This document shows positions 5,488 through 48,575 of a stretch of DNA of 64,000 bases, piece after piece. This DNA comes from Massalongia carnosa (Eukaryota): contig OZ287088.1 in the NCBI GenBank assembly GCA_965645245.1, positions 868,001 through 932,000 on the forward strand. The letters run 5' to 3'. Under the pieces are notes generated by a model that made no database searches, was not told the DNA's origin, and worked only from the letters and a program-made list of their open reading frames with translations. Within the stretch, counting starts at the first letter, position 1; every line of letters starts with the position of its first letter. A program made the translations under genes and the position numbers.

Positions 5488-6186
5488 AAAGAGACCATGA
5501 TTTCTCATGTAGCTTAGCTTTTCAGTTGTTTAGAATTCAATTCAGCAGATAACTAAATTCGAAGTATCTTTACTGAAAATACAGAATATTTGTATCACGT
5601 TTGTCAAGCAATTCTTTTTGATTATTCTTGATAGTTTTAGATTTTTCTTCTTCCGCATTTCTTTGTCGTATATCTGATTTGTTTTTTGCTCAACAGATTA
5701 TGAGCTCGAATAGCACTTTATTCAAATTCAGGATTCTTTTCCACTAAATCTTTTATCTTAGAAAATATTATACCTGTGCTTATTTGAACTCTTAATTATT
5801 CGTTTCGATATTTGAATAATAAGACTTCTTTACTATCAGAATATCTACCTCAGAAGACTGTCAAGATATCGAAGATATACATAAGATATTTATCATTCTC
5901 GAGGCTAGCAAGATATTATTATCAAAAGACAAGTGAATAGCGACTATGACAATTATTGATAAGGAAAGTTAAATGGTATATCAGGTAGGGAGGAGAGAAG
6001 ACTGCATAAAGATGTGTTCTATTGAGATCTGTCTACATGGCTACTATATACTGCCTAGCACGCCAAGGCTCGCAGGGCTGCGCTACATCTATAAAGGGGG
6101 TTGGATGATAATTTAATAAGGGATATAAAAGAAATGTCGATGTGAAAAATAAAATAAAACTGTCAAAATTTATTAACGACAATTAC

Positions 6187-9700: not shown

Positions 9701-9726
9701 ATGAATTCGATTAATCACGAAAGAGG

Positions 9727-10370
9727 ATAATGATGATGATTATTGATTCTTGTACCGATCTGACACTGGCCGAAGGCTGGCCCATACGGGCTATCTACTT
9801 ATTCTTACAGGGAAACCCTTTTAAAGGGATAAAAACCATACAGACTGCGCTATTATCCTAAACGTGTTCTGTTTCTGGACTGCATTCTTCGCTTGATGTT
9901 TTGTGAAATCCTTGACAAAATAAGAGTTATCACTCGTACAACAGTTGTGATGCTAGTGAAAATTGGGTCAGCAAATTTGCTTTTATTATCCATGTGGTTA
10001 GTTTTTTCAACTTTTTCGATGAGCTCATGATCGTTCGATAGTCGTTGATGCCTATTTGTTTTAGCACTTCGTATCTGCGGTCGATTAGCCTGCAATGTAG
10101 AATAATGTTTTTGGCTGTCTGCTTCTGCCACTCGCACGAGCCGGCCGGGGTCATAATGCCCGGTACCCGACGATTGAATAGGAAGTTTGCCAAGCGAATT
10201 TTTTCGTAGCGGATTTGCGTGGCTAGCGCGCTTTCCACTTTCATCAGGTTGTTATGAATCTTCAGTCTCGTCCTACAGAGAGATCCCAACTGTGCCTCTG
10301 TCGGATAGGGAATACGGTTCTGGTACGTCTTCCATTTGGAGTCCCAGCGTTCCTTGATGCGTTCTATGGT
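9727..10370 (-). mobile_element. 3' fragment of another Tad1-like LINE
   Basis: ORF 9930-10289 resembles the ORF2 C-terminus (ESALATQIRYEKIRL...HC...LLTQFSLA); 3' end motif shared with the LINE at 54413. Confidence 0.75.
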
Positions 10371-10512
10371 GGATCACGAAAGATATAATACTATAAAATT
10401 GCAATTAAACGACTTGAAAAATCCCACGTTTCGAAAAATGATTGAAAAATATAAAAAAATCGAGCAAAAAATCAGAAATAACGCAAGAGTTTCTTAAGAA
10501 ATCACTAATAAG

Positions 10513-10869
10513 TGTAAGAGTTACTCTGGACTAGGAGTAGTATAGTAGGTTAAAGGTAGCTCTATAGTACTGATACGGAATGGTTACTAATTAGGTGTAT
10601 ATCAATTTAGTAGTTGAATTGTAAGATAATCTATCTAGGTGGTCCTAACATCATATTATATAGATCAGTGGGCTTAGTCGAGGTCGAGTTTCTTTAGTAC
10701 TTTGCCAACAAAGTAAACTATAGGCGGACGTTCCTCCGTGGGCTCAGGCCTTCCATGGCCTGGCCCGTTGCATGAGTCATCGCTTGACCTGACTATAGTA
10801 TGACCGTATTTAGCACCGCTGAGTTATCAAGCTTAGTAAAAATCAACCTTATACGGCGGCGTCTTAACA
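10513..10869. mobile_element. Solo LTR (357 bp)
   Basis: TGTAAG...CTTAACA termini; TSD ATAAG. Confidence 0.8.
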
Positions 10870-11331
10870 ATAAGATCTTTATCAAGTCTTATAAGTTCAA
10901 AAAAAAAGGAATCACGGCAAGAAATCTGATCACCTAAAAATCAAATTTTTGAATAACTTGTCAATGACGAAGAATAGATCTACAAGAAAGATATCGTCAA
11001 TAAGATTCAATCAAAAGACAAGAAAGTCAAGACCGAAAATAAGAAAAACAAAAAGTTAAGAAATGACAAACGCGAAAAAGGTCGACAAGATTATATTACA
11101 CGCAAAGCATTCGACACAAGAAATAACGACGAGTCAGTATACATATGATCGCATACTAATTGACCACGTGAATTAGAACGACGATAAGAATTAAATCGAC
11201 TACGTCAACAATGAGACGCGTTATCGTACTTGTCAGAAATACTTCTTTTCTAAAAATTTTGTCAAAGTGACAAAACTTACATTTAAAGTAATACTTTCGA
11301 ATGAGTAAATTATTGACTTAAAGAACAGTCC

Positions 11332-13559: not shown

Positions 13560-16500
13560 CTAAGCCTCATCGGGTCCATCTACGGTTTCCGTAGATGGTC
13601 TGACGTTATCCATCGTCTGATCCATCCCTGTGAGGTCCTCTGGCGCCTTCGGTTTTCGAGGATGTTCTCTATGATATTGCAGAACCTTTTCGATAGACTT
13701 TCTGAAGTCGGTCCATGGTTGCCAAGGTGGGTCAGCGTTCCATTCGTCCCAATTTCCAATATTTGTAGCCTTATACTGTACCCCAAATTTCCTTGTCTCT
13801 CGACAGTCCACTATCTCTAAGATTTCCCACTCTTCATGTGTTGCCTCCTCATCGTTCTCGGTGATCAAGACAGGTGGGCCGGGAGGCAGTACTTGCCCTG
13901 GGAACGGATTGGACGGAGCGAGATGCAACTTCCATGGATGAAATATTGGGGTGAGTCCCACATTCTTTAAATGCTGTGGTATGTCAAGCTCATATGCCTT
14001 GTTATCGATTATCCTAACAATTTTCCAGGGAACAACGTTTTTAAACCCGAGGGAACGACTTGGACGCTCTGATGCGAAATGTTTAGCATTAACGTAAACT
14101 AAATCGCCCACTTTGTATTCTGGGTGCGGTTGACGATCTTTGTTAGCATGTCGTGTTTGTTCTTCCTGGGCCCATGTTAGCTGATTTCTTAACCATTCTC
14201 GCATTGCTTCCTGGCGAGCGACTATTTTGTCAGCATGAAGTATCTCGGCTTTTCCCTTTTCTTCATATGTTCCTGGAGGCTCTATTCCCGAACGAGGATG
14301 AAAGCCGTGATCTGCGAAAAATGGTGTCATTCCTGTCGAAACGTTAACATGATTGTTGACGGCGAACTCGGCATCTGAAAGATAGTCGACCCAGTTGTCC
14401 TGAGCATAATTGATGTATGATCGAAGGTAGTTCTTCATTACTTTATTTGCATTCTCAGTTTGACCATCCGTTTCTGGATGATGCGCTGAAGAGAACTTTA
14501 TCTTTACTCCGTATCTTTCACAAATTCTTTTCCACAGATGAGCAGTCAGCTGACTGCCTCTATCGTTTACCGTTGACAATGGAAAGCCATACGAGGAGAA
14601 GAGTCGTCGAGACATGGCGTCCATTAATTCGTCGGTGGAGAGTGACGTAAGCGGTTCGTATAATCGTCTTTTTGTTAGACGGTCTACTATCACTAATATG
14701 TGTTGATACACTCTATTCCTTCGCCGACATTCCGGCAAAAACTCCACAAAATCTAAAGAGACGTCTGTCTATTTTCTGTTCGGTATGGGTAGAGGATTCA
14801 GTAAGCCCTGTTTCTTGACATTGTATGATTTTGACCTTCGACAAATGGAGCAGTTCACTGCGTATCTTTTGCAGTGATCCTTCATGTCGAACCAGAAGTA
14901 GTTTTCCATCAGTGACTGATACATGCTTTTATATCCCGGGTGTCCTTGCAGAGGAGGTTCGTGATGTTTCTGCAACAGGCATAATTGAAGGGGTTCATGA
15001 TCTGGGACATACAGCCTTTCTTTGACATATAGTCTTTCATCTTTCACTTTGAGATCTCCCATGGCTAATTTGATCCCTTTCTTTATAAGATGCGATGGAA
15101 GCTTGCGAAGTTCTCGTGTTTTGGCAGCGATTATGGCTTGAACTACTTCATCTTTTTCATAAGCTTCTTCAATTAATTCTTCTAGAGGTTTCGCTGATGG
15201 ATCTTCTTCCGAATCGTCGCCTAGTTCTTTCACCGGATTTTCATTTAAAATCTGACCCTGAGCCTCTTCATCGTCCTCGATGGCCTGAGGTTCCTCAGCT
15301 TCTTCGTCAGTGTCATTTGTTCTTGTGTTTGCACAGAAGATCACTGATAAAGCCTTCTTTACGTCATCGTCTAGTTGATGCTCCTGTAGCAATGTCTGGA
15401 ATTGATGTTGTTGTCGAGAGTCGTCAAACCCTTTTGGCAGATCTTGAGAACGTCGAGTAAGTGTGTCCGGCTTTTCGCCTTGTCTGCCCGGTCGATACAT
15501 GATTTTGAAATTGAACTCCGAAAGGAATTCAGCCCATCGGGCCTGTCTGCGGTTCTGTTGCTTTGTCGTCATAAAGTGTTCCAGGTTTTTATGATCAGTA
15601 TAAACTTTGATTTGCTGGTCAGGCGCAGCACTTGCTGCCTCGGGCCGCCAGACCTCGAAGCTCTTTATGATAGCGAGGAGTTCCTTATCATATATCATGT
15701 AATTACATTCGGCCGGTGTCATCTTCTTGGAGAAATATGCTACCGGTTTGAGCACTCCGTCATGCATCTGAGATAAGACTCCGGCAGTGACGAAATCCGA
15801 AGAGTCTGTTTCTATCCATGTCTCTAGAGAAGGATCATAGTGCGCTAACACTGGTGCACTAGTGAAGGCCTCTTTCAAATCTTCGAAAGCCTTTTTACAT
15901 TCTTCGGTCCAGATGAACACGTTATATCGGGTTCTCTTCTTGCCCGACTTGGTCGTTATTTGTTCTCCTTTTGTTAATTCCGTCAGACACCTTGTACGCT
16001 GAGAGAACTTTGATATGAATCGTCGATAGAAGTTTGCAAAGCCTAAAAAAGCTTGCACGTCCTTCACGGACTCCAGAGTTTCCCATTTCAAAATCGCTTC
16101 AATCTTCTCGGAATCCATTTGTATTCCTTCAGTGGTGACTATAAGTCCGAGGTACTTTACTTTAGTCACCGAGAATTCACATTTGTCAATGTCAACTTGG
16201 AGTCCTCGTTCCCCCAAGCGTTTAAGAACCTTCAAGACGTGATCTGAATGTTCTTCCTCATTATCACTGTAGATCAAGACGTCATCCAGATAAGCAGTAC
16301 AAAAGACGTCTAAATATTCCCGAACCGAATTATTTATATAACTCTGAAAAGTCCCTGGAGCATTGCATAAACCGAAAGGCATGACCAGATATTCGAACTG
16401 GCCATATCTTGTGTTAAAAGCGGTAAGCCATTCATGTCCTTCTTTTACTCGAAGACGATTGAATGCCGTACTAACGTCTAGTTTCGTGAAGCGTTTTGCC

Positions 16501-17632
16501 TGCGAGAGTTTTCCGAGCGTCTCGTTAATTAGGGGAATAGGATATCGATTCTTTACTGTGATGGCATTCAAGGCTCGATAGTCCTCACAAAATCTCAGTC
16601 CACCACCTGGTTTTCGAACTAGAAGGACTGGAGCAGCTGCTGTCGACGAACTGGGACGAATGAATCCCTTTCCCATATGTTCGTCAATATACTTCTTGAC
16701 AGCTTCCAACTCCTGTTCTGACATAGGCTTATAGTTCCTGACATAAGGGGGTTCTTTTCCGTCCATGAGGTTGATCTCGTGATCCTCCTTACGATGTTCC
16801 GGTAGTTCGTCTGCTTTATGCTTCATAAAGACTTCTATCATGCTATGATACTCTGAGGGAATTTTCTTCAACAATTCTTCGCGGGAGTACTCGGGTTTGC
16901 CTTTCATAAACTTGTCGTAATCCTTTGAGGTGACGGCCCCAGTGGTTGTGGCACAGAAGGTCTTATCTTCTCGGGGAGTCTATAAGTATCCTCGTGATCT
17001 TTCTTCCTAACCATCCGAAAGAAATGTTTCGCATTGACCGGAAGGACTTCGATATCGTCTTTTGTTCCGATCCTATTCTTTGCCCTACTTCTAACAGCAA
17101 ATTCGGTGCAGGTTATTCCACGCGAAAGGCATCCCATTTCCAAGAAATCGGCAGAGTTAAACTTCATAATTCGCTCTTTCCAGTCAATGCTGGGGTTGTG
17201 AGTTTGTAACCACCCATCTCCTAGAATAATCGCGTACACGTCCAGTTTCGCTACATAGCAAAGGACTTGTTCTTGATGATCCCCGATTTTGACGTCGACT
17301 AGGGCGGTCCTCGTGAGAAGTTAGGCAACCTCTCCGTTTCCAAGGGTCAGTTTAACCCCCGTTTCTAATTTGGAGGTGTTCAGTTTATTTACACGCGCGA
17401 AGGATTCATCAATGAACTCAGCCTCACTTCCATTATCAACAAGTAAACGAGTTTTAATTCCAGCTATGCTAGTTTTAAATACTAGATGCTTGCCCTCGAT
17501 CTTCTTTTCAGTATCGAGAACAGCACAACTAGAGACCCTTACTGTCTTCATTTCAGCGCTACCAATTTCACAAATGACATCTTTCTTAAGACGTCCTTGA
17601 TCGCGATTTTGATCAAGGACTAAGCTTTTCCC
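13560..17632 (-). pseudogene. pol: Gypsy pol (protease, RT, RNase H, integrase, chromodomain) with two stops and a frameshift
   Basis: LVDNGSE protease site; YLDD; ETDSSD/DKELLAI RNase H; HPETDGQTE integrase; EWEILEIVD...WQPW chromodomain; breaks near 17321, 16980 and 14769. Confidence 0.93.
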
Positions 17633-19185
17633 GACTCGGAGTCAGAGTCTATCTCAACAATTCTTGTAGTGTTAAGCTTTTTTTCTTTAAATTGAGGGCA
17701 GATCGAGTTGTTTCCTCGATGACCTGACCCCCGACATGCCCAACAGCGTCCCTGACGCGACGATGTCTCTCGCTCTTCCTTCTCCAACTTTTTGGGGTTG
17801 GGGTCAGGATCGTACCAAACCCCTATCCAACCAGCGGGTTTGACTATCGTGGCGCTGAACTTGGAGTTTGGATGATCACCCGACTTCTTCTCTTTTGCAC
17901 TCGATTGACGATAATCGGAAATGGAGGTTTTTCCACTCGAGGACTTGCCTTCGCGACCAGAGTTCTTTGACGGACCAGACTTCTCTGGCCGAGGAAAGTA
18001 GTGAGCGACATCCTTGCGTCGATCTTCGATTCTCCTAGCTTCGTCGAGCAAGGGACGAAAGTCGGTGAAAACTGAACCCATCAGTGAATTAGAGATGCTT
18101 GGCTTCAATGTTACAAGAAACTTCTCTATCCTCTCGTCGATGGGGGTTTTTGCCTTTTGCCAAAGCTTAAAAATTCGATGATAGTACTCGCTTACACTTT
18201 CACCACTTTTCATTGTGATGGTGATGAGTTCTTTCTTGGCATCTCGACTCTGGAGATGTATGCCCATATAATGTTCGATCTCGTCGAACAGAGCGTCAAT
18301 GGTGAGAGAGTCGCCCATGTCGACGACCCAGGAGTGCATAGCCCCAAAGATAGGCGCTTCCATTTGCGATAGAGCATAACTGACCTTTTCGCCCTCGTTG
18401 GCGTAAAGCGGAGAATCGGTCTTAAGCTTGTTTCGGAGTGAGTATTGCCAAGGACTATATTCCTCAGCGTCTTCGCCTTTCAGAGGCTTGCTGGGGGTGC
18501 TCTGGGTTGTAGCAGTGTCCTCCCGTTGGTCACGAGAGGAGTCGGGAGCTGCTAGCCGTCGCTCAAGTTTCTCCTTCTCTTTCTGTAAGTCCTGTTGGGC
18601 CTGGAGAGCTTCTTCCAACTCAATTTCTTTATGCGAAAGCTCTTCCTGAGCAAGAAGGATTTGGCGTTCGTCTTCATCCTTTTCGTCAGCGAAACGGTCA
18701 TTAATCTGCTTATATTGTTCTAAATGCTTCTTGGACTTGATAAGCTTCTCATGAAGCCCGAAGCTTTTTTCGTACAGTGTTTTGTCATAGGGAATTGCTC
18801 TGGACAAAAACTCATACCAACGAGGACCTTCGTTCTCGTCTAGGACGGCATTTCGGAAGTCTTCTAGGTTGCGAATTTTGTATCGTGCGGGATGTTTCTG
18901 AGTTTCTCGTTCGTAGTATGGATGTTCCGAGATGTCAATCTCGCGAGCCCCTTCCTTCTCATTTCCTGACCCAGCCTTCGGGGTCTTTTCTAGTGTGCAT
19001 TCTGTCTCGTCTCCCATCTGCTCACCGGGTGTAAGCTCGGAGTCTTCGAACGTCCCTGGCATACTATCAGAGCGAGCCGAATGACGGGACATGGAACTGG
19101 CGCGAGTGTTAAAAGCAGGGCCTGCTTGAGCGTCTTCGCGAGGAGCGCCGGCCTTTCGAGCAGTCAGGGGAGTTTTCGAACTCAT
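17620..19185 (-). CDS. gag: Gypsy Gag (521 aa) with coiled coil, capsid-like region and zinc knuckle
   Basis: Open ORF after the 5' LTR; MKSGESVSEYY motif; CWACRGSGH...C knuckle. Confidence 0.9.
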   Translation of the reverse strand: MSSKTPLTARKAGAPREDAQAGPAFNTRASSMSRHSARSDSMPGTFEDSELTPGEQMGDETECTLEKTPKAGSGNEKEGAREIDISEHPYYERETQKHPARYKIRNLEDFRNAVLDENEGPRWYEFLSRAIPYDKTLYEKSFGLHEKLIKSKKHLEQYKQINDRFADEKDEDERQILLAQEELSHKEIELEEALQAQQDLQKEKEKLERRLAAPDSSRDQREDTATTQSTPSKPLKGEDAEEYSPWQYSLRNKLKTDSPLYANEGEKVSYALSQMEAPIFGAMHSWVVDMGDSLTIDALFDEIEHYMGIHLQSRDAKKELITITMKSGESVSEYYHRIFKLWQKAKTPIDERIEKFLVTLKPSISNSLMGSVFTDFRPLLDEARRIEDRRKDVAHYFPRPEKSGPSKNSGREGKSSSGKTSISDYRQSSAKEKKSGDHPNSKFSATIVKPAGWIGVWYDPDPNPKKLEKEERETSSRQGRCWACRGSGHRGNNSICPQFKEKKLNTTRIVEIDSDSESGKA

Positions 19186-19806
19186 GACTGTGTTCTGGAG
19201 GTGAAAGAGCTCTGTCTTTCGATTCTGGAAGTTCTAAAGGTTCTAGAGTGAGGACCAGCTCGGATTCTCACGAGTGGTCGTTCTGGAAAGCTAAAGGAGC
19301 AGGTCGTTGTCCCTTTCTAAATGTACTGAAAGTTCTAGAAGACTGGAAGAGTACTAATAAGCATTAAAGGTAGTTAAATTATGTCAGGCAGCTTGCCCTG
19401 ATATTATTCAGTAGCTATGAACTAGAATTTAACTACAAGGAAGGAAAGAAAAGAATAATCATCGCTGAACTCCTAAACATAATCTACCGTGGGTGCGCTA
19501 GCCAGTCAAGCGACGCGCGCTACTGCTTAGGCGAGTCACGCTGTCCCGTGACCACCAGAGCATGTCGGGTCAGGCCAGGACCCTGACAATGGCTATATGA
19601 CTATGTAATAATAAGTGTATGTATAACCGTGATGTTAAGGATGAAGAGTGCTGTTCAGCAGTCTTTATCCTATAACTGGTCATCTTCTATTAAGTGAGGT
19701 GATCTTTATCTTATCTTGGGACTAACTTAGGCCTAATGCGGCTTCTACGGTTTCCTAGATGCTATGTTCATTGTACTGATAGGAGTTGGATATTCAACAT
19801 CCCCCT

Positions 19807-22800
19807 TCAAGTCCTATCATACTCTGAACCGTTAGATCTTGACTGACTGTTCGTGTTTTCCATGTGCAGCTGTCTGATGAAAGAGAAGAATTTCACATGG
19901 GTCAATGGCTTAGTCAGGCCGTCCGCTAGTATATTTTCCGTCGGTATATAGGATAAGTTGATTCGTCCATCAATGACTTCGTTTCGGATGAAGTGTGACT
20001 GAATGTCTATGTGTTTTGTCCTAGAATGTAAAACGGGATTGTTGACTAGTGCGATTGCACTTTGATTGTCGCCTTTTAGTGCTATAGCACATTCCCTTTT
20101 TAGTACTTTCACAGTTGGAGAGGTATCATCTGTCTTTATCAGGCCGAGTTCAGTCATCCATAAGCGTATCCATATGGTTTCCTTAGCAGCCAAGGTGAGT
20201 GCCATATATTCTGCTTCTGTAGATGACAATGCGACGGTTTTCTGTCTCTTGGAACACCAGCTGATAGGTCCATTGTTTAGCATGAATATATAACCGGAGG
20301 TGGATTTGCGATCTTCCCTGTCTCCGGCCCAGTCTGAATCGGAATATCCCTGTACGGACATGTCACCTCCACCATAGGTAATGCCTCTCTTTAGTGGCAC
20401 TGAGGTATCTGAGGATAGTTTTGGCGGCTTCCATGTGTGTTTTGCCAAGATTTTTGGCATGTCTGCTGACCACTGATGTTGCAAAGGCTATGTCTGGTCG
20501 TGTTTCTATCATAGCGAACATTATGGAGCCAACTATCGCTTGATATTGTTTAATTTCTTTATCAGAGGCCTGAGAGTCATTTCTGAAAAGACTGCCTTCT
20601 TTCATTGGGGTAGTAGAGATTTTTGCGTTCTGCATATGAAATTTCTCTAGGATCTTTTCAATATAGGCAGGCTGAGAGAGTTTGATTGTTCTGTTAACGC
20701 GATTCCGTTCAATTTTTAGACCCAGATAGGACCAATATCTACCATTTTAAATGCGATATTGAGTTGCTTTTTGACCTCTGTAATCATCGGAGAGCCTTTC
20801 CGGCCAATTATGTTCAGATCGTCAACAAATGAGGTGACAATGGGCCTTTAATGCCAGCTGAGGTGGAAAAGATACTATGATCTGCCTGAAGTTTGAACAG
20901 TCCTAATTTGCTCAGTAAGAATTCTGATAGACGTTCGTACCAGAGACGTAGAGACTGTTTCAAACCATATAGTGCCTTATTAAGTTTGCAAATCATGCCT
21001 GGCGTTTCATATCCTTTGGGAGTCTGGACGTAGATCAATTGATCAATTAATCAATTTTTCCATAAAGGAACACTGTCACGACATCAAGCTGTTCGATGTC
21101 TAGGTCATAAAATCCAGCTTTGGCAAATAGCAATCGAAAAGCCATCGGTTTCACGACGGAAGCATAGATCTGTTCGAAATCTACTCCATACTGTTGGAGA
21201 TAGCCTTTCACCACCAATCTGGCTTTGAATCGTGTGATCTTTCCATCTATGTCTCGTTTCAGTTTGTAACCCATCTTCCGCTAAGAACAATATGGCCAGG
21301 CTCTATTGAATCGGATGATACTAGGTCCCAGGTATTATTTTCCAAGAGACTGTTATGTTCGTCATTCATTGATCGACTCCATTCTTCTGAATATGCAGAA
21401 TTCATGGCCTGATAATATGTTTGTGGCTCGGCAACGTCGAGTTGAGACAGTGCATCATAGTTTTCCAGGCCTGATGATCCTTCCTTTTCTAGTGTTCTGG
21501 CCAGAAGGACTAGTGGATCTACTTCATCTCTGTCATCGGAAGTATAAACGTGATTTGGCTTAGTTAATGCTTTGTTTGATAGAAGAGAAAATATGTGAGC
21601 TATATGAACGTGCTTTCTGGGCCTGCCTCGTCCACATTTAGGAGATGGAATGGGAAGTATAGTGGTGACTGATTCTGACGGAATGCTTATGTCGGGGGCC
21701 ATGATTACATCATATATAGGAACTTCGGTCTGGTCTTTGGAGATGGCGTCTTCATGAATGCGTATATCTTTGACCCTGATGACCCTGTAATCCTTTTCAA
21801 GAAATACCCGATAAATAGTACATCCATCGTAGCCGCACAGAATTCCACGTTGAGCTCGAGATGAAAATTTAGCCGATTTGCTGTTGATGCCTTTCCGTTC
21901 TTCTTTATGAATAAGAACATAGACAGTGGATCCCAAAACTCTTAGATGGTTCAGAGATGGTGATTTTGATTCATAGAATTCGTATGGGCTTTTGCCTGAT
22001 AGAGCATTGGTAGGTCTAATATTCTTGACATGAACCATTGCTAGCACTATCTCTGTCCATAGATAGTCTGGAATGCCTCCCTTGATAATAGTGCACCTGG
22101 TCATGTCCATGATGGTTCTGCCTGCTCGTTTAGACACTCCGTTCTGTTCCTGAGAATGCGCAGCGGAGGGTTCAAACGTTATCCCTTCTTTGAGGAACCA
22201 TTTATCTCTTTTTTGACTTCGAAGTTCTGTACTAAAGTCGGTGCGAACAATGCTGATTGGTTTGATTTTTCCAGACTTGTTTTGTGCCAGACTATAATAA
22301 GTCAATAGATGAGTAAACCATTCGCTTTTCTTGAGACCTGTGTAGACATGAGTGTATCGACTAGCATCACAGGTGAAGGTAAAGAACTAGAGTTCATTCA
22401 GAAGTCCTAGGGGCTTGATGGGTCCAACAAGATCAGAGTGAACCTTCTGGAATAATTCCTCTGTCTTCTTCTGAGTTGACCGATTATATTGCTTTGTTGC
22501 CTTTCCTAGTTCACAGGAGGAACAGTACTAATCATCCTTGATGTCATCCAGAAACGATACGTCTAGAACCTTTAGATATTTCCGACAGCTTGAGATGTTG
22601 AGGTGACCGAGACGGACGTGCCATGTTGTCAATTTCACCTTGCTGGACGTGTGATAAATTGCCGTCTCAGGCCATTGAAAGATATCGGCTTCTATTCTTG
22701 TAAGATGAATAGCCAGGTCTGGGGTGTGCAAGGTCTTCAGCATGAAGTTGATATTGACTCTTGGTGCATAGCCTATGATGTCTCTGGTTGAAAGAAGAAA

Positions 22801-24540: not shown

Positions 24541-25490
24541 GATAATTTTTTGAAAGAAGTGATTTAGACTTCAAAGAGAGAGCGGAACTCGAATAACATG
24601 AATTTATCATGTTTCTTGACAGGCTCTCGGCTTTGAGGTGTGTATCTCTTCTTGCCTTGAGCTTTCTGATTGTAGTTTTGTCTCTGATCTTCGAAGAATC
24701 TATCTTAAATAGATTCGCTCGATATTCAAGAGATCTACTAGTTTCATAATAGTACTCAAAGAAACTTTTTTTTTTAAATATTATTTCTTCTTAATCAAGC
24801 TCTTTCTTGCAAGCAAGTCTTGAACTTGATAAGATGATATCTCTTGCTTTCATGAATCAAGAATATTTGTTGTAGTTTGTATCATTCTCGTAATAATAAA
24901 TAGTCAAGGGGTTGAGATTGTTTTCAAAGACACAGACGACTCAGCTTCTTGTCTGTAAGAATTCAAACAGATACGATTTCTTAGCTTATTTAGCACTGTA
25001 GTACTGCAAATATAAGGCTTTCGATTCGTGTAGAATCAATAGCGCCCTTCCGGGCTCATAACCTGTTGAAATAGGTATATGACTATGGCTATATGACTAT
25101 ATAATAATAAGTGTATGTATAACCGTGATGTTAAGGATGAAGAGTGCTGTTCAGCAGTCTTTATCCTATTACTAGTCATCTTCTGTAAAGTGAGGTGATC
25201 TTTATCTTATCTTGGGACTAAATTAGGCCTAATACGGCTTCTACCGTTTCCAAGATGCTATTTTCATTGTACTGATAGGAGTTCGATATTAAATAAAATC
25301 CATACTTATTATAATATGATCGCATAAGACACGTGAAATATAAAGATTTATTGTTCTTCTTAAAATTAGTAATAAAGTAAAAATCACTTTAAATAATCAT
25401 GAAAAGAAATGTAAATGCATCACATGCATTTAAACGAAAATAACTCGAATCATCAATCGAAATTTATCAGAACGGGTTTTTCGTCGTCTG

Positions 25491-25758
25491 TGTAACGGGT
25501 GGGTAATAGAAAGCCTACTCAAGTGGCAGTGATGATGGTCTTGATGGCTAGCTAGCCATGTTAAATAAACAAGACAAACACAAGGAAGAAAGCTGCAATT
25601 GCTGCAGAGCTTTTTTTATAACTCCTTGATCCCTTTACTAACCTTTATAAGGTTAGCTTTCCGCTTAACCCAATGCGCTACCTCCCGCGACGCTAAATGT
25701 CGCTTAGCAACCTTCTTGTGGCTACCTTTCCCAGATTATCCTTATTCGCACCATGACA
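25491..25758. mobile_element. Solo LTR (268 bp)
   Basis: TGTAAC...ATGACA termini; TSD GTCTG. Confidence 0.85.
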
Positions 25759-26520
25759 GTCTGAAACTAGTCTATTCAGACTTTTAAAAGTTATATAGAA
25801 TACTCAATTATTAGATAATCAGATATTTTGTGTTTTTTATCAACGAAGTTATCGATTATTCGAGTTTTTATCTCGAGATCAGAAGCGAATTACAAAAGTC
25901 CTTTCGATTTTTCAAAAATCGTGTCGAGATTGAAACAAGAAAGCGTATCAGGATTCTGCGATGTGTTCTTGACGAAGCGAGAAAGTGAATAGATTTCTAC
26001 AATTGCGCCACCTGTCCTCCCTTGCCTCAGTACCTCAGACGTGCGTGGCTCAATGAGCCGGCTAAGCCCCTCCGGGTTAGCCTATTTTCGCTAAGCCCCT
26101 TCGGGTTAGCGTCGCTGCTGACTAACATCAGTGCGATAGCACGTCTGAGCGCAAAACTCAAAATTACGGTCAGATCCGCGTAATAAAAATTTTAGCAGTG
26201 CAACCATTCCTTTTATGGATTTAATACAATGATTAGGGTCGTATTAGTTTACCAGAGACTGTATTTTATACCAAAAACGCACCTCTCAAGATGGATGACT
26301 CGATAATCATGTGTTATAACTACTGTCAGGCTAAGAAAAGCGATGTGAAAGTCGATTAAGTGATAAATTGTTCGCTTTCGCTCAATTTTGAGGTTGATGA
26401 ACTGATTATTTTCATGTGGCGCGATTACATTGAGTTACAAAGATCATGATGATATGAATAACGACGGCCAATCAATGGTATTGTATGATTTATCTAGATT
26501 GAAGCTATCTGACGAAAGCC

Positions 26521-29199
26521 ATGGCTCTTGTCGGGGGCCCCTCCTCGCCACTTACCGACCTACGGACAAGTCCCTTGACTCCCGCCGGTGCGCTCAAGCG
26601 GCCCCACCCATCGCCGTCAGGCAGTAATGATAGCTCACCCTCTTCCTCCTCCCCTCCTGCCTTACCTGAAAAAAATGGAGGCGCGAAACGCCACCGCCGG
26701 CGCATATCAGATTACGACAAGCTGGTTGAGGTGCTTAAATTTCTGAGCTCTCTAAATTGGTCGGTAAAAGATTTTTTATCAACACTTTGTAAGAATCGAG
26801 CCCGTCATAGTATGCGAAAGGCGCAAGGCCAGCTCTTCGATTTTGTCTATGTCGATATTGTGCGGCAAGAAGACTTTTCAAGCCTCATTGGGCCTGGTAG
26901 AATATCCACTATCCTTCGCGAGAGAGGATGGGTTTGGGCCGCGGATGTGCTTCGTGAAGAAATCAAAGCTTTGGCAGATCACGCAGCCTTTGGCCCTTTC
27001 CAGCCGCCCTCTGCGACAGTCGAGTTTGGGACCTTGGAGGCTATTAAACTTGCTGCATCTGCCGCCAAGCAGTTGGCGCCACGATGGCTTGAGCTAATTG
27101 ATAGTGTTTGTCGCGAGGCTCGCCCGCAGGAACCTCTCGATGTGACATTGGATTCTCCCAGCGGCCGGCACACCGTTATATTGGCAATGCTTTGTCACAA
27201 ATTGCGACCAAATAAGGCGACCAATATTCAGTCCGTCTTAGGCCTTTATATTTATCAAGGTGGGGCGAGGCGGCGAGTTCTAGATACACTCTGTCATTTT
27301 GACCTGACGATGTCATATACTACCCTGCAGCGGCGCATGTTGTCCTTGATTAAGGAGGCCGAACGAAAGGTTCAGATGCTAGGACAAGGCTCAAACATGA
27401 TCTTGACATACGATAACTTTGACTTCGCAGAAGGTAAACGAGGAGAGCGCACGGGGGATAATAGAGACGTCAGATCAATCACTACCGCTCTAATTTTCCA
27501 GGGGCAAGGATTCGATGCCGGCGCTTTGAGGCAGGATATGTGGCGCCCCGCCACGCATCTTTTATCAGCTGAAAGAATTGCGCGAAAGCTGGAGACTGGT
27601 GATCTCGAGATGCAGGTGAGTTCAATACAGGACGAGGTGTATATACCGCGCTCAATCGCTAATGCACCGCGTACCTAGATTCGTCTTCATCATCTAGAGT
27701 CAGCGATTCGAGCGCTTTATGGCCCAGAGATCGGCGACGTTCAACTTCCTTGGTCGACTGCAATGCCCGTGCTGAATAAGATGAAAAAATACAAGACCAA
27801 TTACATTCCTATCAAACCAGTCATGAAGGATGAGAGCACAACATCTAATAATATTCAAATATTGGAGGATATATTTGTGCGACAGTTCAAGTTCAAGGAG
27901 GATGACTCGACGTTTGCGAGCGTCATTCGGCTTATCTATGGTGACCTCAAGACATGGTCGAGAATGCAATCTGTCAAGGAATTACGTCGTGGGATATCGG
28001 AGCAATCTTTCGATCGGTTCGACTGGATTTTACCGGGATTAGGGTTATGGCATCTTCGCTTTAACATGCTGCAGCTTATTCATAAAATACATTGGGGAGA
28101 GGCCCAGCCGGTTGATCCTTCGACTCTTCAATATGCCGCCGATCGGTGGGGCCGCGCTCGTGTCGTGCAGCCGAACGATTTCCAGGCCTTAGAGGATCTG
28201 ATCATTCAGAGCTATCAAGCTAGAATCGTTGGGACGTGGATTAGGTTTTTACGAAAGGATGGATATGCTCCGCAGCGAATCGAAGCAACTATTTCGTGGC
28301 TCACAGCGCAGACTTGCGGGCAGGATGGCACCTGGATGAATATGTTGGGCAGGATATCTCGCAAACTTCACGCGGAATTACCCTCAACGTCAATAGATAT
28401 GCTTCCTCCAACGCTTGATCAACAATTTCAGAATCATCAGAACTTCTGTGATCACGTTGAATCGTATCTAACACTTCGATACGCAATCAAATATGCGGAT
28501 ATTGGACTACTTCGTCACGCATTGCGCCACGCAACGGTGATCTTTCAGGCAAGCGTAGCTGGCACCCCGAAATATGCGCAAGCTCTTCTATACACCCTTC
28601 ATGCGATTGATTCTTCCGCAGCGACCATAAGGCTACAGGAAAGTATTTTAATGAATAGTCTTGTCAATTTACGCGGTGACGAAGAGTCGAGTTTTGAGAC
28701 TGATCGGCTTTTAGAGATACTAAACAATAACCTCAAGACGTTCCAGCACGAGCGATCTTATTTTTCAAAGTATAGTGACACCTTGCTCGAGAACTGGGCA
28801 CTCAACGGTCCATATCTTATGAAGCTCAAAGAAATCGTTGAGTTTTACTTTGGAAGAGTCAACTCTTCAAGGCATCCAGCAAAATCGGCCGCAGAGGATG
28901 TGTGGGGCATGGCTACGGCACTAGCGCATAAATCACTCTGTAAAAGAAGCTATGATCGATTTTCAACTAATCCAACAGCTAATCTTTATGTTGAGGGATT
29001 GAAGAAACTTGGAGAAAATGTATTAAAATACAATCAGCAGTATCTTTCCGAAGAAATTTCAAAAGAAATTTCAACAGACGACCTTGAGGGTAAGTATGAA
29101 GCCGAGCCCGATTTTGTCAATGAAACAAAGCAGGTCCCCGACAGCCCTGTCATTTCAATGGCCCGTCTCGAGATATCCGGCGGTATGTTTTTTGATTAA
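26521..29199 (+). CDS. Putative DDE transposase, DUF6589/Academ-like, 871 aa (exons 26521-27615 and 27679-29199)
   Basis: 63-nt intron GTGAGT...GCTAAT...TAG joins two ORFs in frame; motifs LTYDNFD, IYGDLKT, GLGLWHLRFN, LRYAIKYADIG, DRLLEILN. Confidence 0.8.
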
Positions 29200-29258
29200 A
29201 TCATCGATACCACGAGATAGCCTAGTCATGTAAATCCGCGCCGCGCGGCTTTACAGAG

Positions 29259-31434
29259 TCAGAGGTAGCGGACGGGGCACTTTCTTTCTTGTCTAGATCG
29301 TGTCGGAGGAAGGGCCATGGGTACATTCAGCGACAACGCTTCCATAGGATCTCGAGGCGCTTTTTTGGTCTTTGATGCCTTCATCGATGATTTAAGAGCA
29401 TCAACATTGTCAACAACGAGCGCCGCATCGGAGATATTGTGATTAGGCGCAGGATTCTCGCCCGATGGCTCCGTGCTCTCGCTTTCCTTCGAGACTTTCT
29501 TCTTGACCGCATTTCGCTTTTTAAAAACCTTTCTCGACATATATCCTTGTTTGATCATCCAGTTTTTCCTCCGTTCCTCAAATTCAATACTGGCGGAGTT
29601 GCATGTTAGGCTGGGTAATCGTTTTCTCTTTATGTCGTTGTGTCGTTTCCATTCCTCGAACATGTCTCCCTCGTCTAATCTCATTGCTTGACCCCGCTTT
29701 AAAATTTCTAAAAGCTCGGCGCCGTAGGGCCTAATACCAGTCCATGTGTTACCAATCCATCGCCGCATGGTGGGCTCGTCCACAATCTGATCCGCCCAAG
29801 TGGTCAAAGAATTCAGTACCTCATCGGGCATTATCAATGATGGGAAGTATCGCATATGTGAATTTGGGAACTTTTCCTGCGCCTTGGCCTCCCTCCATTC
29901 TCGAAGTTTAAGGGTGAACCAAGGCCGCCTAGACGAGTCACGCTCGGCCGTTCTATTTAACATCTCATTGGCGGCTGTTGATGTCTGAAAACTTGGATCG
30001 CAAATTGAACAGCAAGGTTGCGGCTTAACATAGGCCGACGTTGGATACACTTTATCATTGAAGAAATTCAAGCCAATACCTCGAACGCAACCATCTGAAG
30101 GCACATTGATTATCTCCCAAAGACCCGGTGGCATATCTCGTCGCCGATCAGCATCCTTTTGATTGATGCGGCGTTTACTGGCCTTGGATTCAATCTCGAT
30201 TCCCGCGTCATATCCGTCCTGTTCGTCCATTTTTGATCCGCTTCTTGGACCCATGCACCAAGAAGGATGCAAAAGAGTAAAATGCGCCTGTCCTCGACCG
30301 CAACGCAAAGCACGACCTAAACGTTGGTATAGCTTCGCCATTGACGAGGGTAGCAGCCATTGCGTAACTCTCATAACGTCTGGATTATCAATACCAAGCC
30401 CGTATGCATCCGTTGCGATCAGGATTCGAGGAAATTTACATTGATTCGAGGGCATTTCGAAGCGAGCCGCAATCCTTTCTTTGTCTTGGGTGGCCATGTC
30501 GGAAAAGAAAGGCGCGACCCAACTAGCAGCCTCAATTGGATAGGACAATTGATTCATCCATACTTTCATTAGCGCACACGTCTTTTTGATAGCTGAAATT
30601 GAATCCATGAAGATAATCGTTTTCGGAATATCAAAAGGACTCTCAGCCCGTGTTGGTAAAAGATGTTGAAGATCGATCATGCTGTTCATAGGCCGCTGTA
30701 GACTGCTTGTCTGTATGTATATCTCTGGACGATCAAGCGCTGTTTGAATAACAGTACTTTCGTTATCAAAGCCACAGCGATCTTTAACGCTCTCTAGGGT
30801 TCTTGGATCCAGCGTTGCAGACGCACCCAGAAAAGGAATACCATCTGGTAATCGTGTACGAAGCACACCGAGATTGAAGTATTCGGGCCGGAAATCTCGC
30901 CATTCGGATACAAGATGCATCTCATCAAGAGCTAAAAGACATAAATTCAAGAAGAAACTTGGATGCCTCAGAACCTCCTGATTAAACAGCTTTGACGTCG
31001 CTATCTCTGGGCTAGTAAAAACTATTCATATTAACGAGTAAGTTTTTATATTTATCTCAATCATAATTTGAATACACACCATGCGTATAATTGTTTTCAC
31101 GAATTAACTTTAAATTAGAAGAATTATTACTATCACCGTCCAACACGAAAGGCTTGCATCCCTCGATAACGTTCAATTTCTTGCACTGTTGAGCTTCTAA
31201 GGTCTTGAGAGGCATGATAATTAAAGCGATCTTAAGACAAGAGAACATTAATGGCATAGCTTGAAAGATAATACTCTTTCCAAATCCAGTCTTGGCGATA
31301 AATATCAGATCCTTTTGATCTTGTGCTAAAGTCATGATAGCGTCAACTTGCTCATTCTTTGGATAAAAGCCGAATTTACTTAAAATCACGGTCGTCACCT
31401 GCTCGCGAGTTATCGACGCTATAGGATCGTCCAT
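29259..31434 (-). CDS. RecQ-like superfamily 2 DNA helicase, 705 aa (exons 31434-31080 and 31021-29259)
   Basis: 58-nt GT..AG intron restores THVFTSPE; AKTGFGKS, DEMH, SATL, ATDAYGLGID, YQRLGRALR; Cys cluster C...CCSIC; HRDC-like LREWR...IMPD. Confidence 0.9.
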
Positions 31435-32633
31435 TTCGATGTGTTCGCGAGCGATATTCGACGATTCGCGAGTTGGATTCTTAGCCCGCAAAACGCACAT
31501 CAAGCAAGTTCATCACATTCAACGATTTTAGGCTTTCGAAAACAACGCTCGGAGGATCAGATTAATGATCAGAAGCGCCGACAATGAAAAACTGGAGCTA
31601 GTGACCCGTTGAGTCTGCTGTGGTGGTGTCGAAATTTCGAGTCAAAGTCGAGTCCTCGTCGCGAGATCGATATTGCGACTCAATTTTGCATCGATATGTA
31701 ATTAAAATATTGATTAATCGATAGAATGTATATCAAAGCATCATTTCTATTATTACATAATTTATGAAATGTCGTTGCGCGTTGTTGATTCCGCCGTCAA
31801 CTTGATTCTTGATGATTTTTGAGGTTAAGCCAAAAATTTGTATGAGCGCGCACCAAAATAAGCCGGATCTGACAAAAATACGTGCCGCCCGTAGCATGCG
31901 TAGTCAGCTAAAGGGCCGCTAACCCGAAGGGAATTAGCGACGCTAACCCGAAGGGGCTTAGCGAAAATAGGCTAACCCGGAGGGGCTTAGCCGGCTCATA
32001 GAGCCACGCACGTCTGAGGTACTGAGGCAAGTCCTCCCGACTAAAAGGCACAATACTTAGTCAGCAGAATAAGCTCTATTCTCCTATAATTGAGACTCCT
32101 GTTATAGTCGCTAAAGGTGCTGCCGTCCGCACTACAAATGGTCGAACCGTTATAGTGATAACGCTTTGTAATATAAAATACAAACTAAAACGATATTATC
32201 GAAAAAAATAATGATAAAGTATTTATACTCACGAGTAGAAGAATGTTGCTAAAAAGATTCAACAAAACGCTGTTGAATGATATCAACGATGAAGAAGTAA
32301 TCTGAATTGTTTAAATTATTTTCAGAGGACGCACTATTGACCGTAAAATATCTGAAGAATATACTTTCGTCGAAGCGATTCGATATGAAGATTTCGTAAG
32401 AGATATGATATTAGAAGAAGTCAGAAATAAATCATATAAGAATTTATGAATTTCTCGTAAACGTAAACGTTTTTAGCGAAACTCGTGCGAAGATAAATAA
32501 AATATTTCATAAAAATATTATCGTTAATGATCGATCATTTAGTCAGTATAAGATGTAAAAGTCTAATACGAAAACAATGAGAATACATATTTCAATAAAG
32601 TTTTTCCAAGATTAATCAGAAGACGCTTTATTG

Positions 32634-32762
32634 TATAACGGTTCGACTAAGCGTAGTGCGGACGGTAGGACCTACAGCGAACATAGCAAGAGTCTCAGTT
32701 ATAGTAGAATTGAGCTTGGTCTGCGGACTAAGTATTGTGCCTTTTGGTCGGGAGAGGGATGA
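32634..32762. mobile_element. Left part of an LTR D copy, truncated at LTR A
   Basis: Matches about 2446-2570. Confidence 0.7.
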
Positions 32763-33822
32763 TGTAATGGGGTACGAGACCAGTAAGCTAATCACGAGCG
32801 ACACTGATCTCGAAATGGGAAATGCTTAGCGTGAGAGGTGGAAGATAGCTACTACGTGCTAGTCTCCGAGAGTATACGTGATCCAAAGAACTAATGGATG
32901 TGAAAGTGCTTAGACCATGAGATCTCGTCCGAGACCCAAACGTAGGTTGTTCATAGAATAAAGACTAATTGCTAACGAATACAACAGGATTCGTTCTGGT
33001 ATTTATCCTACTCACCCCAAGCCTATAGCCTTGGGAGCCTTGGAACCTTAGGAGCCTTGCAACCCACATCTGACCTTATCGCCTTAAATCCAATCATCCC
33101 TCAGGATCTATCTACGAACTCGACATTCGCTGGATCATCTAGTCAGCCTCGAGCAGCCTTCTAGACCTTCCCATGCAAGGTAGAACAGTTCTACCTCCGG
33201 CTAGATCCCTCGCCACATTGCTAGCCCGCCTCTAAACATATAGTCTAGACGCCGAGGCTATGTAGCTTAATTTCGCCACCACTACCAACGTAGCGGTGGA
33301 AGGTTACCTCCGACTGAATCTCTGTCTACACTGCGGACCTGCCTCTAGACACAAGGTTTAGACCACAAGGTCATGTAGGTTCATTCAGCCGACATCACAA
33401 CCAGCGTAGCAATAAAGTTGGAAGCTGAAGTTTACACCGGGGAGGCCGAGCTCAAGCTGCGTCCAGCTAGCCGTGCCTCACGCTACAACTCTTGATGCAT
33501 CAAGAGATCGAGTAGCTCCGAGTAGGCCAGTAGATTCCATATAGAGTTCACGGCTAGTGTCCACAGGAGTTCGCCTTACACTCCATAGCAATCTACCACC
33601 GCAGCCTCGACAGGTGTTTGATCTGTAAGCAGTCTAGAACGTAGTACCAACTACTCCGAAGTCGTATAGCAAGGTGGCGTTGTGGCAAGATAGCGATGTG
33701 TCAAGGTGGCGATGTGGCAACCTCGACGGCTGTGCGACTTCGTACTACGGCTTGGCTCATGCTAGTTAATCCCGCAACCACCCTAGGCGATCACGTATCC
33801 TTCTAGCGCCATCCGTATTACA
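32763..33822. mobile_element. Solo LTR, family A, without matching TSD
   Basis: Closely similar to 449-1476; flanks GATGA versus GCCTT. Confidence 0.9.
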
Positions 33823-46406: not shown

Positions 46407-48575
46407 GAAGATTTCCCGAGGAAATGCCGCACCCGACGAAATGCCGCATCTTCTCACTTTCCAACCATTACTTTCAGACATGAATAAATCCACCCTCAAC
46501 GCTCGTATCGAGCTCGCAATTGCTGATCTGAATCAGCAAGATCAGCCTAACCTCAGGGGGACAGCTAAAAGGTTTAGCCTAGTCGAAAGTACCCTCCGGA
46601 GGCGCTGGAAAGGCCAAACGGTGTCCCAAAAGGCAGCCGCGTCAAAATACAAGCAACGACTTACCTTGGCCCAGGAAGAGGCCTTAATTCAGCAAATCAA
46701 TCGCCTTGTCGATCGTGGACTGCCCCCAACCGCCAGAATTGTACGAAACCTAGCGGAGGAGGTGATAGGAGGGCCTGTAGGGAAGAACTGGACAGGGGAT
46801 TTTGTCCGCCGATACAAGGATAGGCTTAAAAGTCTTTATCTTCGAAATATGGATAGCCAGCGTATAAAATCTGAGTATCCGCCTTTATTTAAGCAATTCT
46901 ACGATTTGGTAGCGTGTTAACTACCCATTCCTATTTGTTGAATATTAATTATGATCGAAAATAACTAATGTTTCTATTAGCTAATCGCCGGTGTCGAAAA
47001 ATACAATATCACGAGGGAAAACCTTTACAATTGGGACGAAAAGGGCTTTGTGATTGGCCAAGCAAGCGCCATGCAACGTATCATGTCGCTAGAGGCCCTT
47101 GAATCAGGGCGGATCACACATGCAAGCCAGGACGGGAATAGGGAGTTTATCAGCCTCCTTGCTTGTATCGGGGCCGACGGAACCGCTTTACCTCCTGCCT
47201 TGATCTATAAAGGCGACTCTGGCATACTCCAGGATACATGGGTTGAGGATGTAAATCCTAATGACGAGGCGTTCTTTGCAGTATCGGCGAAAGGATGGAG
47301 TTGTGATATCCTTGGCCTAAATTGGCTAGAGCAGGTTTTTCAGCGTTATACGAAGCAAAAGGCTAGAAATAGAAGACGTTTACTGATAGTAGACGGTCAT
47401 TCTAGCCACGTGAATCTTAAGTTTATCGATAAATGCGATAACTTACGTATTCTTCTCCTGATTCTACCTTCGCACTCTACGCATCGTTTACAGCCTCTGG
47501 ACGTTTCTCTATTCGCGCCGTTAGCAACGTTCTATACCAATGGGCTGAATAGACTAATGTTCGAGAGTCTAGGCATGATAAACATGTCAAAAAGAGCCTT
47601 TTGGAGCGTTTTCTTCCCTGCATGGCAGCAGGCATTTTCGGAGGAAAAAATTACTTCTGCCTTCGAAAAAACCGGTATTTGGCCTTACAATCCGAGCCTT
47701 ATACTAAATGTTATCACACCACAGATAATCGAGGCTCCTTCTCAGTCGCCAAAAACACCAATGACAAGCCGTGCTATTCGCCGTACGCAGCGAGCGTACG
47801 ATATTGCGCCTACAAATTTATTACTAGCAAAGATCTTCCGGGCTAACGAACGCCTTGCTGCCCAGGACTCTATCAACAAATACGTGATCAAAGGGCTCTG
47901 CAATACCCTTCAGGACGAAAAGAAGAGGAGGAAGAGAGGTAAACGGCTTAATTTAGTTGGGGAAGAGGACTCAGGCCCTCAATTCTTTAGTCCTAGGCGA
48001 GTACAGGCTGCCAGGGAATTTCAAGCAGCAAAAGAGGAAGAAGAAGCACAACGCCAGCTAGATATTAGCGAGAAGCGACGACAAGCTACTGCTAATAGGT
48101 TACAGAAAGAAGAGGAGAAGCTAGAAAAGGTAGCAATCGCTCTAGAGAAGCGGCGATTGACTGCAGAAGCAAAGGTAGCAAAGGCCGCTGAGAAGCAGGC
48201 TCAGAAGGAGTTACGTAAAACAGCAAACAGATATCCTAAGGGACAGCTCGGGCAGCAGAAGCAGTATACAGGGTCTAATAAAGTTCAAAAGACTCGAAAG
48301 AAGAAGGTAAAGCCGCCTACTCGTGTTATTATCGCTAAAGAGGTAGAGGAGGTGGTTTTAACTACCTCGACTGGAAGAAGGGTCCAGCGCCCAGGGCGTT
48401 TTGCTATGTAAGGTTTTTAAGGTCGGATATCGTGTATATACTTTCTATTTATACTATATTTAATACACATTCCATTAATCGTTGTAGTTGTTGATCAACG
48501 ACGAAAACAATATTCTAATGCCGAATTGTAAAGTGCGGCATTTCGCCGGGCGCGGCATTTCCTCGGGAAATCTTC
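46407..48575 (+). mobile_element. Intact Fot1/pogo-family DNA transposon (2169 bp)
   Basis: ~42-bp TIR GAAGATTTCCCGAGGAAATGCCGC with an internal GAAATGCCGC direct repeat; TA TSD. Confidence 0.95.
46480..48411 (+). CDS. pogo/Fot1 DD35D transposase, 619 aa (exons 46480-46908 and 46981-48411)
   Basis: 72-nt intron with ACTAAT branch site; HTH region; YNWDEKGF, IVDGHSSH, LQPLDV with 35-residue spacing. Confidence 0.93.

Follow-up and report, generated by a model that had tools for sequence, protein, structure and literature searches.

Why does a DNA transposon bounded by terminal inverted repeats (TIRs) carry a helicase gene of its own, and is an element that does so a new kind of transposon or a well-preserved copy of a known one? 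Both questions are raised by a locus in a 64,000-nucleotide stretch of the Massalongia carnosa assembly GCA_965645245.1 (contig OZ287088.1, positions 868,001 to 932,000), hereafter called the window, with positions counted from its first base. The element in question spans 26022-32030 (6,009 bp) and contains two convergent genes, one encoding a protein of the Pfam family DUF6589 (gene 1) and the other a RecQ-like helicase (gene 2). Academ is among the least studied superfamilies of DNA transposons, and an intact copy is a tractable system in which to ask why some of its lineages carry a helicase. We describe the element as a clean specimen of the known helicase-encoding kind, AcademH, and not as a new kind. 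It is highly probable that it is a cut-and-paste DNA transposon of the Academ superfamily, of the AcademH kind, autonomous and recently active. As a specimen it has intact copies of both genes, ends defined to the base, an empty-site sequence, signs of current activity, and a structural model of a transposase homologue with candidate catalytic residues.

Ends, target site and mobility of the element

The two TIRs are 95 nt long, differ only at TIR position 31 and give the element the termini 5'-TTGCC...GGCAA-3' (Table 1). They are flanked by an exact 8-bp target site duplication, GTCCTCCC. A sequence-only reading of the window had described the same repeats, with one mismatch, and the same perfect duplication. 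A repeat finder called arms of 96 nt at 99% identity (26021-26116 and 31936-32031) instead of 95 because C26021 and G32031, two bases of the duplication, pair by chance. The window contains the 24-nt terminus only at the two ends of the element, and 100 shuffled sequences did not contain it at all. Within each TIR, about 25 unstructured terminal bases are followed by short palindromes that include two to three copies of a 21-nt unit. Both of the Academ-type features sought at the borders, TIRs and a target site duplication, are present.

The target of the insertion was a repeat. The element lies across the left edge of a 721-bp foldback repeat resembling a miniature inverted-repeat transposable element (MITE), located at 32034-32754, with 121-nt inverted arms of 84% identity and belonging to a high-copy family. 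To the window segment 24500-33500 we aligned Logan contigs of four public sequencing runs, here called X1, X3, X5 and X6. In other copies of the host repeat the left flank of the window joins the repeat arm directly, reading ...CACCTGTCCTCCC and then, across the joint, GAC..., with the octamer present once. Joints on the opposite strand connect 26015-26021 with 32749-32754 in five contigs of X1, three of X3 and two of X5, and the loose ends behind 32754 (five in X1) and 32753 (two in X3) read as the left flank in reverse complement. These contigs are paralogous empty sites, and they fix the element borders as well as the 8-bp duplication. Since GTCCTCCC is single in the uninterrupted copies of the host repeat, the insertion and the duplication of 8 bp are real for this copy, and the element was inserted by an 8-bp staggered cut.

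A duplication of 9 bp is ruled out at this site. The ninth bases differ on either side (T26013 against A32030, and T26022 against G32039), and the ends of relatives start with TT like those of this element, which also opposes a longer duplication. An orthologous empty site was not found in the contigs of the four runs. One joint, 26018>32035, which skips 6,016 bases (depth 845, side 23), was considered as such a site and rejected, its depth being that of repeat paralogues. The predicted empty-site sequence had no match within the window.

Sequencing depth indicated how common the element is. In X1 the four long unitigs within the element have depths of 5,687-5,925, compared to 165 and 178 in the unique flanks, which match the window without any difference. 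The ratio is about 33-fold; taken from Logan contig depths, it is no formal count of copies, but it indicates that near-identical copies number in the tens. Clustering at 90% identity places 72 and 43 sequences in the clusters of the two proteins. A contig from X5 matches inward from exactly position 26022 with two differences in 1,782 bases and then carries 29 letters unlike the window flank; it shows the same terminus at another insertion site. In X1, three joints (26129>31971, 26110>31965 and 26108>31943) connect both ends of the element across short unrelated fillers and look like internally deleted derivatives, as interrupted gap repair would leave. C>T and G>A do not predominate among the changes in diverged copies, and there is thus no obvious signature of repeat-induced point mutation. 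The family is multi-copy and young, and with both reading frames open the copy itself is apparently autonomous and recently active, in line with the earlier description of it as young and intact.

In X5 and X6 the element was recovered at 0-3 differences per contig, with a depth of only 2-3 and with the window flanks absent. Horizontal transfer to the sources of these runs was set aside, since at low depth an element present in tens of copies would leave single-copy flanks unassembled; the runs may simply contain small amounts of this fungus. Some copies of the element carry 18 extra nt behind 31879, just inside the right sub-terminal region; this long form was seen in X3 and X6 and the window form in X1.

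The same observations bear on whether the two genes could be a fixed or domesticated pair of host genes that happens to lie between repeats. Domesticated copies may exist elsewhere: in metagenome contigs, the loci L005, L006 and L007 (match 8846-11116) carry the same DUF6589 gene, 40% identical to exon 2 of gene 1, with no helicase within up to 10 kb and no inverted ends found, and this gene may be a helicase-less or domesticated copy. At the window locus, a host gene pair is contradicted by the 95-nt TIRs, the exact duplication, the paralogous empty sites, the roughly 33-fold depth and the near-identical X5 copy with its different flank. We give the host-gene explanation a negligible probability.

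The transposase and its superfamily

Gene 1, on the + strand with its ATG at 26521 and its stop at 29199, encodes 871 amino acids (aa) in an undisrupted frame with one predicted intron. The stop codons of genes 1 and 2 (29199 and 29259) are 59 bp apart, which bears out the earlier description of two convergent, undisrupted genes for proteins of 871 and 705 aa ending about 60 bp from each other. Pfam recognizes gene 1 solely through DUF6589 on exon 2 (E 2.3e-62). At least 1,032 representatives of this family match at E up to 1e-3, and its clusters come most often from arthropods, Basidiomycota and Mucoromycota. The closest named relatives of the window protein are from the lichen-forming fungi Teloschistes, Icmadophila and Xanthocarpia, and the host is probably a lichen-forming ascomycete.

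To our knowledge no Academ transposase has been solved or assayed. A fold was modelled on the full-length homologue P0052 from Xanthocarpia (838 aa; alignment of 71 sequences), which shares 39% identity with exon 2 and 26% with exon 1; this homologue was folded in place of the window protein because the intron splits the catalytic region of the latter. A word-index protein search with P0052 returned no sequence besides P0052. The AlphaFold2 (AF2) model, with a pLDDT of 86.2 and a pTM of 0.82, has the strand and helix order of RNase H. It places the YDN motif with D302 in strand 1 and the GD motif with D441 at the end of strand 4. Behind the GD motif comes a wholly helical insertion of some 170 residues, followed by the helix that contains the DxxxE motif with E690. 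In a Foldseek search with this model the first 21 ranks were all P element, Hermes, RAG1 or Transib (best E 2.3e-3, probability 0.99). On re-alignment with VIA-align the 40 best rows were all P element, Hermes, ISCth4, RAG1 or Transib, with Z values of 9.8 for the P element (354 residues), 9.0 for Hermes, 7.6 for ISCth4, 7.1 for RAG1 and 6.9 for Transib, and of 4.6 for the next, unrelated row. The P element, hAT (Hermes) and Transib/RAG1 are structural neighbours only: they have no detectable sequence relation to the gene 1 protein, which has no THAP, BED or C/DxxH signature, and a sequence profile of 71 family members found no PDB chain at E up to 10. On the strength of this model, gene 1 encodes a DDE transposase of RNase H fold that contains an insertion domain; the candidate catalytic residues of the window protein are D298, D454 and E711.

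The RNase H-like DDE domain criterion for Academ reportedly goes back to Yuan and Wessler in 2011. A hidden Markov model of this domain, RNase_H_Academ, with 465 positions from 44 sequences, is printed in the supplement of Muszewska et al. 2017 (PMC5751038); of it, positions 1-23, 127-228 and 433-457 were inspected. In these parts the profile has the conserved stretches f-D-N-w-D, v-v-l-t-g-d-q-p-l-y, e-w-l-v-p-f-l-g-f-f-H and l-D-e-a-l-E (PMC5751038), while positions 127-177 held no conserved motif and were left out of the test. Four position-specific blocks, together 38 of the 465 positions, were scanned over the spliced 871-aa protein. The best single match of each block was at residue 297 (YDNFD), 449 (RLIYGDLKTW), 480 (DWILPGLGLWHL) and 704 (FETDRLLEILN), all in order. 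Their spacing is near that of the profile, with residues 298, 454, 481-490 and 707-711 corresponding to profile positions 3, 191, 214-223 and 450-454.

The ordered chain scored 43.6 bits for the window transposase. The mean of 2,000 shuffles was 18.7 with a standard deviation of 4.0 and a maximum of 36.1, and none reached the score of the real protein. The reversed protein scored 15.8, six unrelated open reading frames of the window 13.8-25.1 and eight other DUF6589 proteins 30.8-49.8. Furthermore, the first aspartate and the glutamate are 413 aa apart, a distance that suits the Academ profile with its 465 positions but not the profiles of Kolobok (273) or Dada (304). At the level of sequence we regard the four-block match as good but not final evidence for Academ, the superfamily that had been proposed for this element together with its AcademH kind.

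Relatives of the element were collected by a scan of metagenome contigs, which yielded DUF6589 relatives of 24-63% identity at 37 loci. A helicase gene was also found at 14 of these loci, in convergent orientation at all 14; among the 17 loci with at least 9 kb of downstream sequence it was present in nine at E 1e-5, with two more weak matches. The terminal sequence of about 20 nt is conserved in all lineages (12 invariant columns over 15 ends; consensus TTRCCTYAGYA.SCYYAGRC), and gene pair and terminus are both common to relatives down to 25% protein identity. In the most distant group, with about 25% identity and elements of 9.4-12.8 kb, four elements have both ends and 9-bp duplications, which are exact in L026 and L028 and have one mismatch in L019 and L023.

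The AcademH lineage is said to have been described by Kojima in 2020 (Mobile DNA 11:15). Its features were taken here from the relevant passages of two papers that cite this work, PMC10045372 and PMC10799480. The first attributes duplications of 9-10 bp to AcademH, and duplications of 3-4 bp and a nuclease instead of a helicase to AcademX (PMC10045372); a 2024 paper citing Kojima 2020 describes AcademH as low-copy elements in Basidiomycota, Ascomycota and Mucoromycota. The window element resembles AcademH in its TIRs, in a DDE transposase that matches the Academ profile blocks, in the superfamily 2 (SF2) helicase gene beside the transposase gene and in its occurrence in fungi including Ascomycota, and relatives with the same terminal motif have 9-bp duplications. 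It differs in the 8-bp duplication of this copy, where AcademH is given 9 or 10 bp, and in a copy number that looks high, at about 33-fold depth, compared to the low-copy elements of the cited passage. With AcademX it shares the transposase superfamily as judged by the four-block test; it differs in having a helicase and 8 bp where the cited passages give AcademX an XPG nuclease and 3-4 bp, and neither the four exon translations nor 8 long DUF6589 proteins showed an XPG domain.

Because the published range is 9-10 bp and distant relatives with the same terminus have 9 bp, we take the 8-bp duplication as a minor variant, one base beyond a range in which variation was already known, measured in one copy. 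The sequence-only reading had seen an ascomycete member or sister lineage with a different target-cleavage stagger. The AcademH kind stands; the different stagger was overstated for one measured copy next to relatives with 9 bp, and an ascomycete AcademH is not a novelty, Ascomycota being named already in the cited passage. No paper on Academ transposons in lichens was found in the literature searched.

Several points weigh against placing the element in AcademH. Membership of Academ rests on 38 of 465 profile positions, in blocks picked after the profile had been read; the modelled protein is the homologue P0052 and not the window's own; the 8-bp duplication, measured in one copy, falls outside the cited 9-10 bp; and among the 17 loci with 9 kb or more of downstream sequence, eight show no helicase at E 1e-5. 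One of the distant relatives, L026 (189-9592, 9.4 kb), has good ends, an exact 9-bp duplication and no helicase even at E 1.

The small number of compared positions and the 8-bp duplication would also suit a separate superfamily, founded by the DUF6589 protein and Academ-like at its catalytic motifs only, which would make the element a new kind of helicase-carrying TIR transposon. Pfam lists DUF6589 as a family of unknown function, and no paper tying DUF6589 (PF20231) to any transposon superfamily was found in the literature searched. However, all four Academ blocks rank first, in order and with matched spacing, at a score that no shuffle reached, and the catalytic span fits Academ and neither Kolobok nor Dada. 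The distant relatives have the 9-bp duplications cited for AcademH, and the spread of DUF6589 over arthropods, Basidiomycota and Mucoromycota agrees with descriptions of AcademH. We consider a separate superfamily quite improbable. The link drawn here between DUF6589 and the Academ transposase would help with annotation, in that many 'hypothetical proteins' of fungi and animals could be recognized as products of transposon genes.

KolobokH, the second lineage of fungal DDE transposons described as carrying a RecQ-type helicase, is another candidate placement. Helicase-encoding KolobokH is known from fungi only, a rhodophyte Kolobok has such a gene on the complementary strand, and the best structural neighbours of the modelled transposase, the P element and hAT, are in the motif group of Kolobok. 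What separates the two are the ends, the histidine motif and the gene order. Kolobok has TTAA-specific 4-bp duplications and 5'-RR..YY-3' termini (PMC9587614), against the 8-bp GTCCTCCC and TT..AA here. Read by eye, the conserved histidines after the second aspartate stand in GLWH and HxxH (H-K-I-H), not in the C/DxxH motif of KolobokH, and the helicase is a separate convergent gene instead of lying downstream of the transposase domain. An assignment to KolobokH is therefore very improbable, and AcademH remains the preferred placement.

The helicase and its possible role

Gene 2 is on the - strand, with its stop at 29259 and one predicted intron in an undisrupted frame that encodes 705 aa when translation starts at the ATG at 31434; with a second ATG farther upstream in the same frame, at 31500, the protein would have 727 aa. 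The predicted splice keeps the protein colinear with WRN and with RecQ structures. Of 40 sequence matches in the PDB, 37 were RecQ-family proteins (RecQ at 4.6e-17, WRN, RECQ5, RECQ1, BLM and RECQ4), the N-terminal exon matching WRN only. The Walker A (GKS), DEMH and SAT motifs and the arginine-finger motif QRxGRxxR are all intact. Across 20 relatives 39 columns are invariant, and C313, C338, C339 and C342 (exon 2 numbering) are likewise invariant and lie in the region of the RecQ zinc site. Pfam RecQ_Zn_bind matched weakly in three and HRDC weakly in two of the 20 relatives, and Pfam RQC gave no match in the helicase.

The AF2 model of helicase exon 2 has a pLDDT of 75, with the last 90 residues or so basic and disordered. 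Its alignment with the catalytic cores of BLM and bacterial RecQ, taken as a whole with their winged helix, covers about 460 columns; the best E was 1.3e-14, and every one of the 44 listed rows was RecQ family. The protein thus resembles E. coli RecQ (1OYW), WRN, BLM and RECQ1/4/5 in both RecA-like domains, in the GKS, DEMH, SAT and QRxGRxxR motifs, in the four-cysteine cluster at the zinc-site position and in its fold. It differs from them in an identity of only about 19-24% and in that the element helicases have a conserved C-terminal part of their own (W377-R378, W428) and the disordered basic tail. Judged by these motifs and matches, gene 2 encodes a RecQ-family helicase with intact motifs. 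The earlier proposal, a TIR transposon in which a transposase and a RecQ-like SF2 helicase are combined, agrees with the RecQ-family matches and with the DDE fold of the homologue; between them, the profile and structure searches that it suggested as a check have found DUF6589, the Academ blocks, a DDE fold and a RecQ fold.

The helicase could instead be a passenger, a captured paralogue of a host RecQ that takes no part in transposition. The eight helicase-less loci among the 17 with enough flank, and L026 with its ends and 9-bp duplication, fit this explanation, and the wide shuffling of helicase domains of transposon origin in fungi is discussed in the literature. On the other hand, the convergent arrangement in 14 of 14 two-gene loci holds across transposase identities of 25% to 63%. 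Transposase and helicase trees give the same groups, an agreement that counts as weak support because few independent lineages are represented. The helicase frame is intact, with all motifs and with the invariant columns in its relatives, which points to purifying selection, and sister Academ lineages are cited with a nuclease in the same role (PMC10045372). A passenger is unlikely in view of these data, and the RecQ-like helicase has probably accompanied the transposase for a long time, as its partner and not as cargo picked up recently. At the loci that lack it, either the helicase is dispensable in cis or the copies are non-autonomous; L026 is either non-autonomous itself or belongs to elements whose helicase can act in trans.

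The transposase would recognize the conserved termini of about 20 nt, TTGCCTCAGTACCTCAGACG, and possibly also the palindromic sub-terminal repeats. It would then cut the 3' ends and join them to the target 8 bp apart. We tentatively place the helicase at the non-transferred strand because in sister Academ lineages its position is taken by an XPG flap nuclease: the helicase may free or process the non-transferred 5' strand at the nicked ends. In such a scheme it would unwind from the nick, and a host flap nuclease or repair synthesis would finish the reaction. By analogy with AcademX we rate this role as possible, short of probable.

The main alternative, held with little confidence, is that the helicase steers repair of the donor gap by synthesis-dependent strand annealing. 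Such repair would restore the element at the donor site and raise its copy number. Filling the donor gap from a template would account for the many copies and for the deletion derivatives alike. It is doubtful that three things hold together: a fixed 8-bp stagger, one base below that of any described AcademH, a current amplification to tens of identical copies, and a helicase that does the work of the AcademX XPG nuclease on the non-transferred strand. If all three were true, this one intact copy would make it possible to ask directly what a DDE transposon needs a helicase for, and whether duplication length is set by the accessory enzyme.

Features, other relatives and surroundings

The features of the element are collected in Table 1.

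Table 1. Positions of the features of the AcademH-type element, numbered from the first base of the window.
Feature	Position	Strand	Remarks
Left target site duplication GTCCTCCC	26014..26021		Octamer single in uninterrupted host-repeat copies (joints of 26015-26021 with 32749-32754; loose ends behind 32753/32754)
Left TIR, 95 nt	26022..26116	+	First ~20 nt, TTGCCTCAGTACCTCAGACG, are the conserved family terminus; 21-nt palindromic sub-repeats at 26061-26081 and 26090-26110
Transposase exon 1, residues 1-365	26521..27615	+	First catalytic motif (candidate), Y-D298-N-F-D301
Transposase intron (predicted), 63 nt	27616..27678	+	GT..AG, with in-frame TAG; in L001 a gap of similar size lies at the same place between exon matches
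Transposase exon 2, residues 366-871, and stop	27679..29199	+	DUF6589; G-D454-L-K-T, W481..P484..H490, D707-x3-E711
Helicase exon 2 and stop	29259..31021	-	End of RecA1 (DEMH), RecA2 (Helicase_C), four-cysteine cluster, conserved C-terminal region
Helicase intron (predicted), 58 nt	31022..31079	-	GT..AG; protein colinear with WRN across the junction
Helicase exon 1	31080..31434	-	Walker A AKTGFGKS; alternative ATG at 31500
Right TIR, 95 nt	31936..32030	-	Palindromic sub-repeats at 31942-31962 and 31971-31991; a third at 31918-31938, just inside the TIR
Right target site duplication GTCCTCCC	32031..32038		Matches the left copy exactly

Some of the metagenome loci have further peculiarities. In L017, L018, L019, L025, L027 and L028, which belong to the distant group with 9-bp duplications, the two genes are 6.5-7.7 kb apart, compared to 59 bp-0.8 kb in the other groups, and these elements therefore contain several kb of extra internal DNA. 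The locus L025 is tangled, with two candidate left ends, and gave no clean duplication. Whether the loci L003 and L004 might be the two parts of a single insertion was also considered; with only five bases in common between their flanks, no duplication was read from this pair. At L001:2865 a left terminus nearly identical to that of the window element lies 5.9 kb upstream of the transposase gene, and L009 (972 and 2359) and L011 (7467 and 8838) each have two left-end motifs in the same orientation, 1,387 bp apart. These end motifs suggest nested or rearranged copies.

Other copies of the foldback repeat at the insertion site extend into sequence like the left flank of the element, which means that the repeat unit is longer than the arms. 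Depth is extreme in the nearby segments 32627-33500, 24801-25101 and 25704-26004, where the summed X1 contig depth reaches up to about 146,000, against about 170 in the unique flanks; the transposon sits in a nest of high-copy repeats. The window as a whole abounds in transposons. Elsewhere it contains a Ty3-type pol with reverse transcriptase (RT), RNase H and integrase, a copia-like fragment, a pogo/DDE_1 transposase, a long interspersed nuclear element (endonuclease-RT-RNase H) and a NACHT/NLR-type gene, which together occupy the regions 13560-19233, 21259-22386, 46981-48411, 54778-60401 and 61170-62846.

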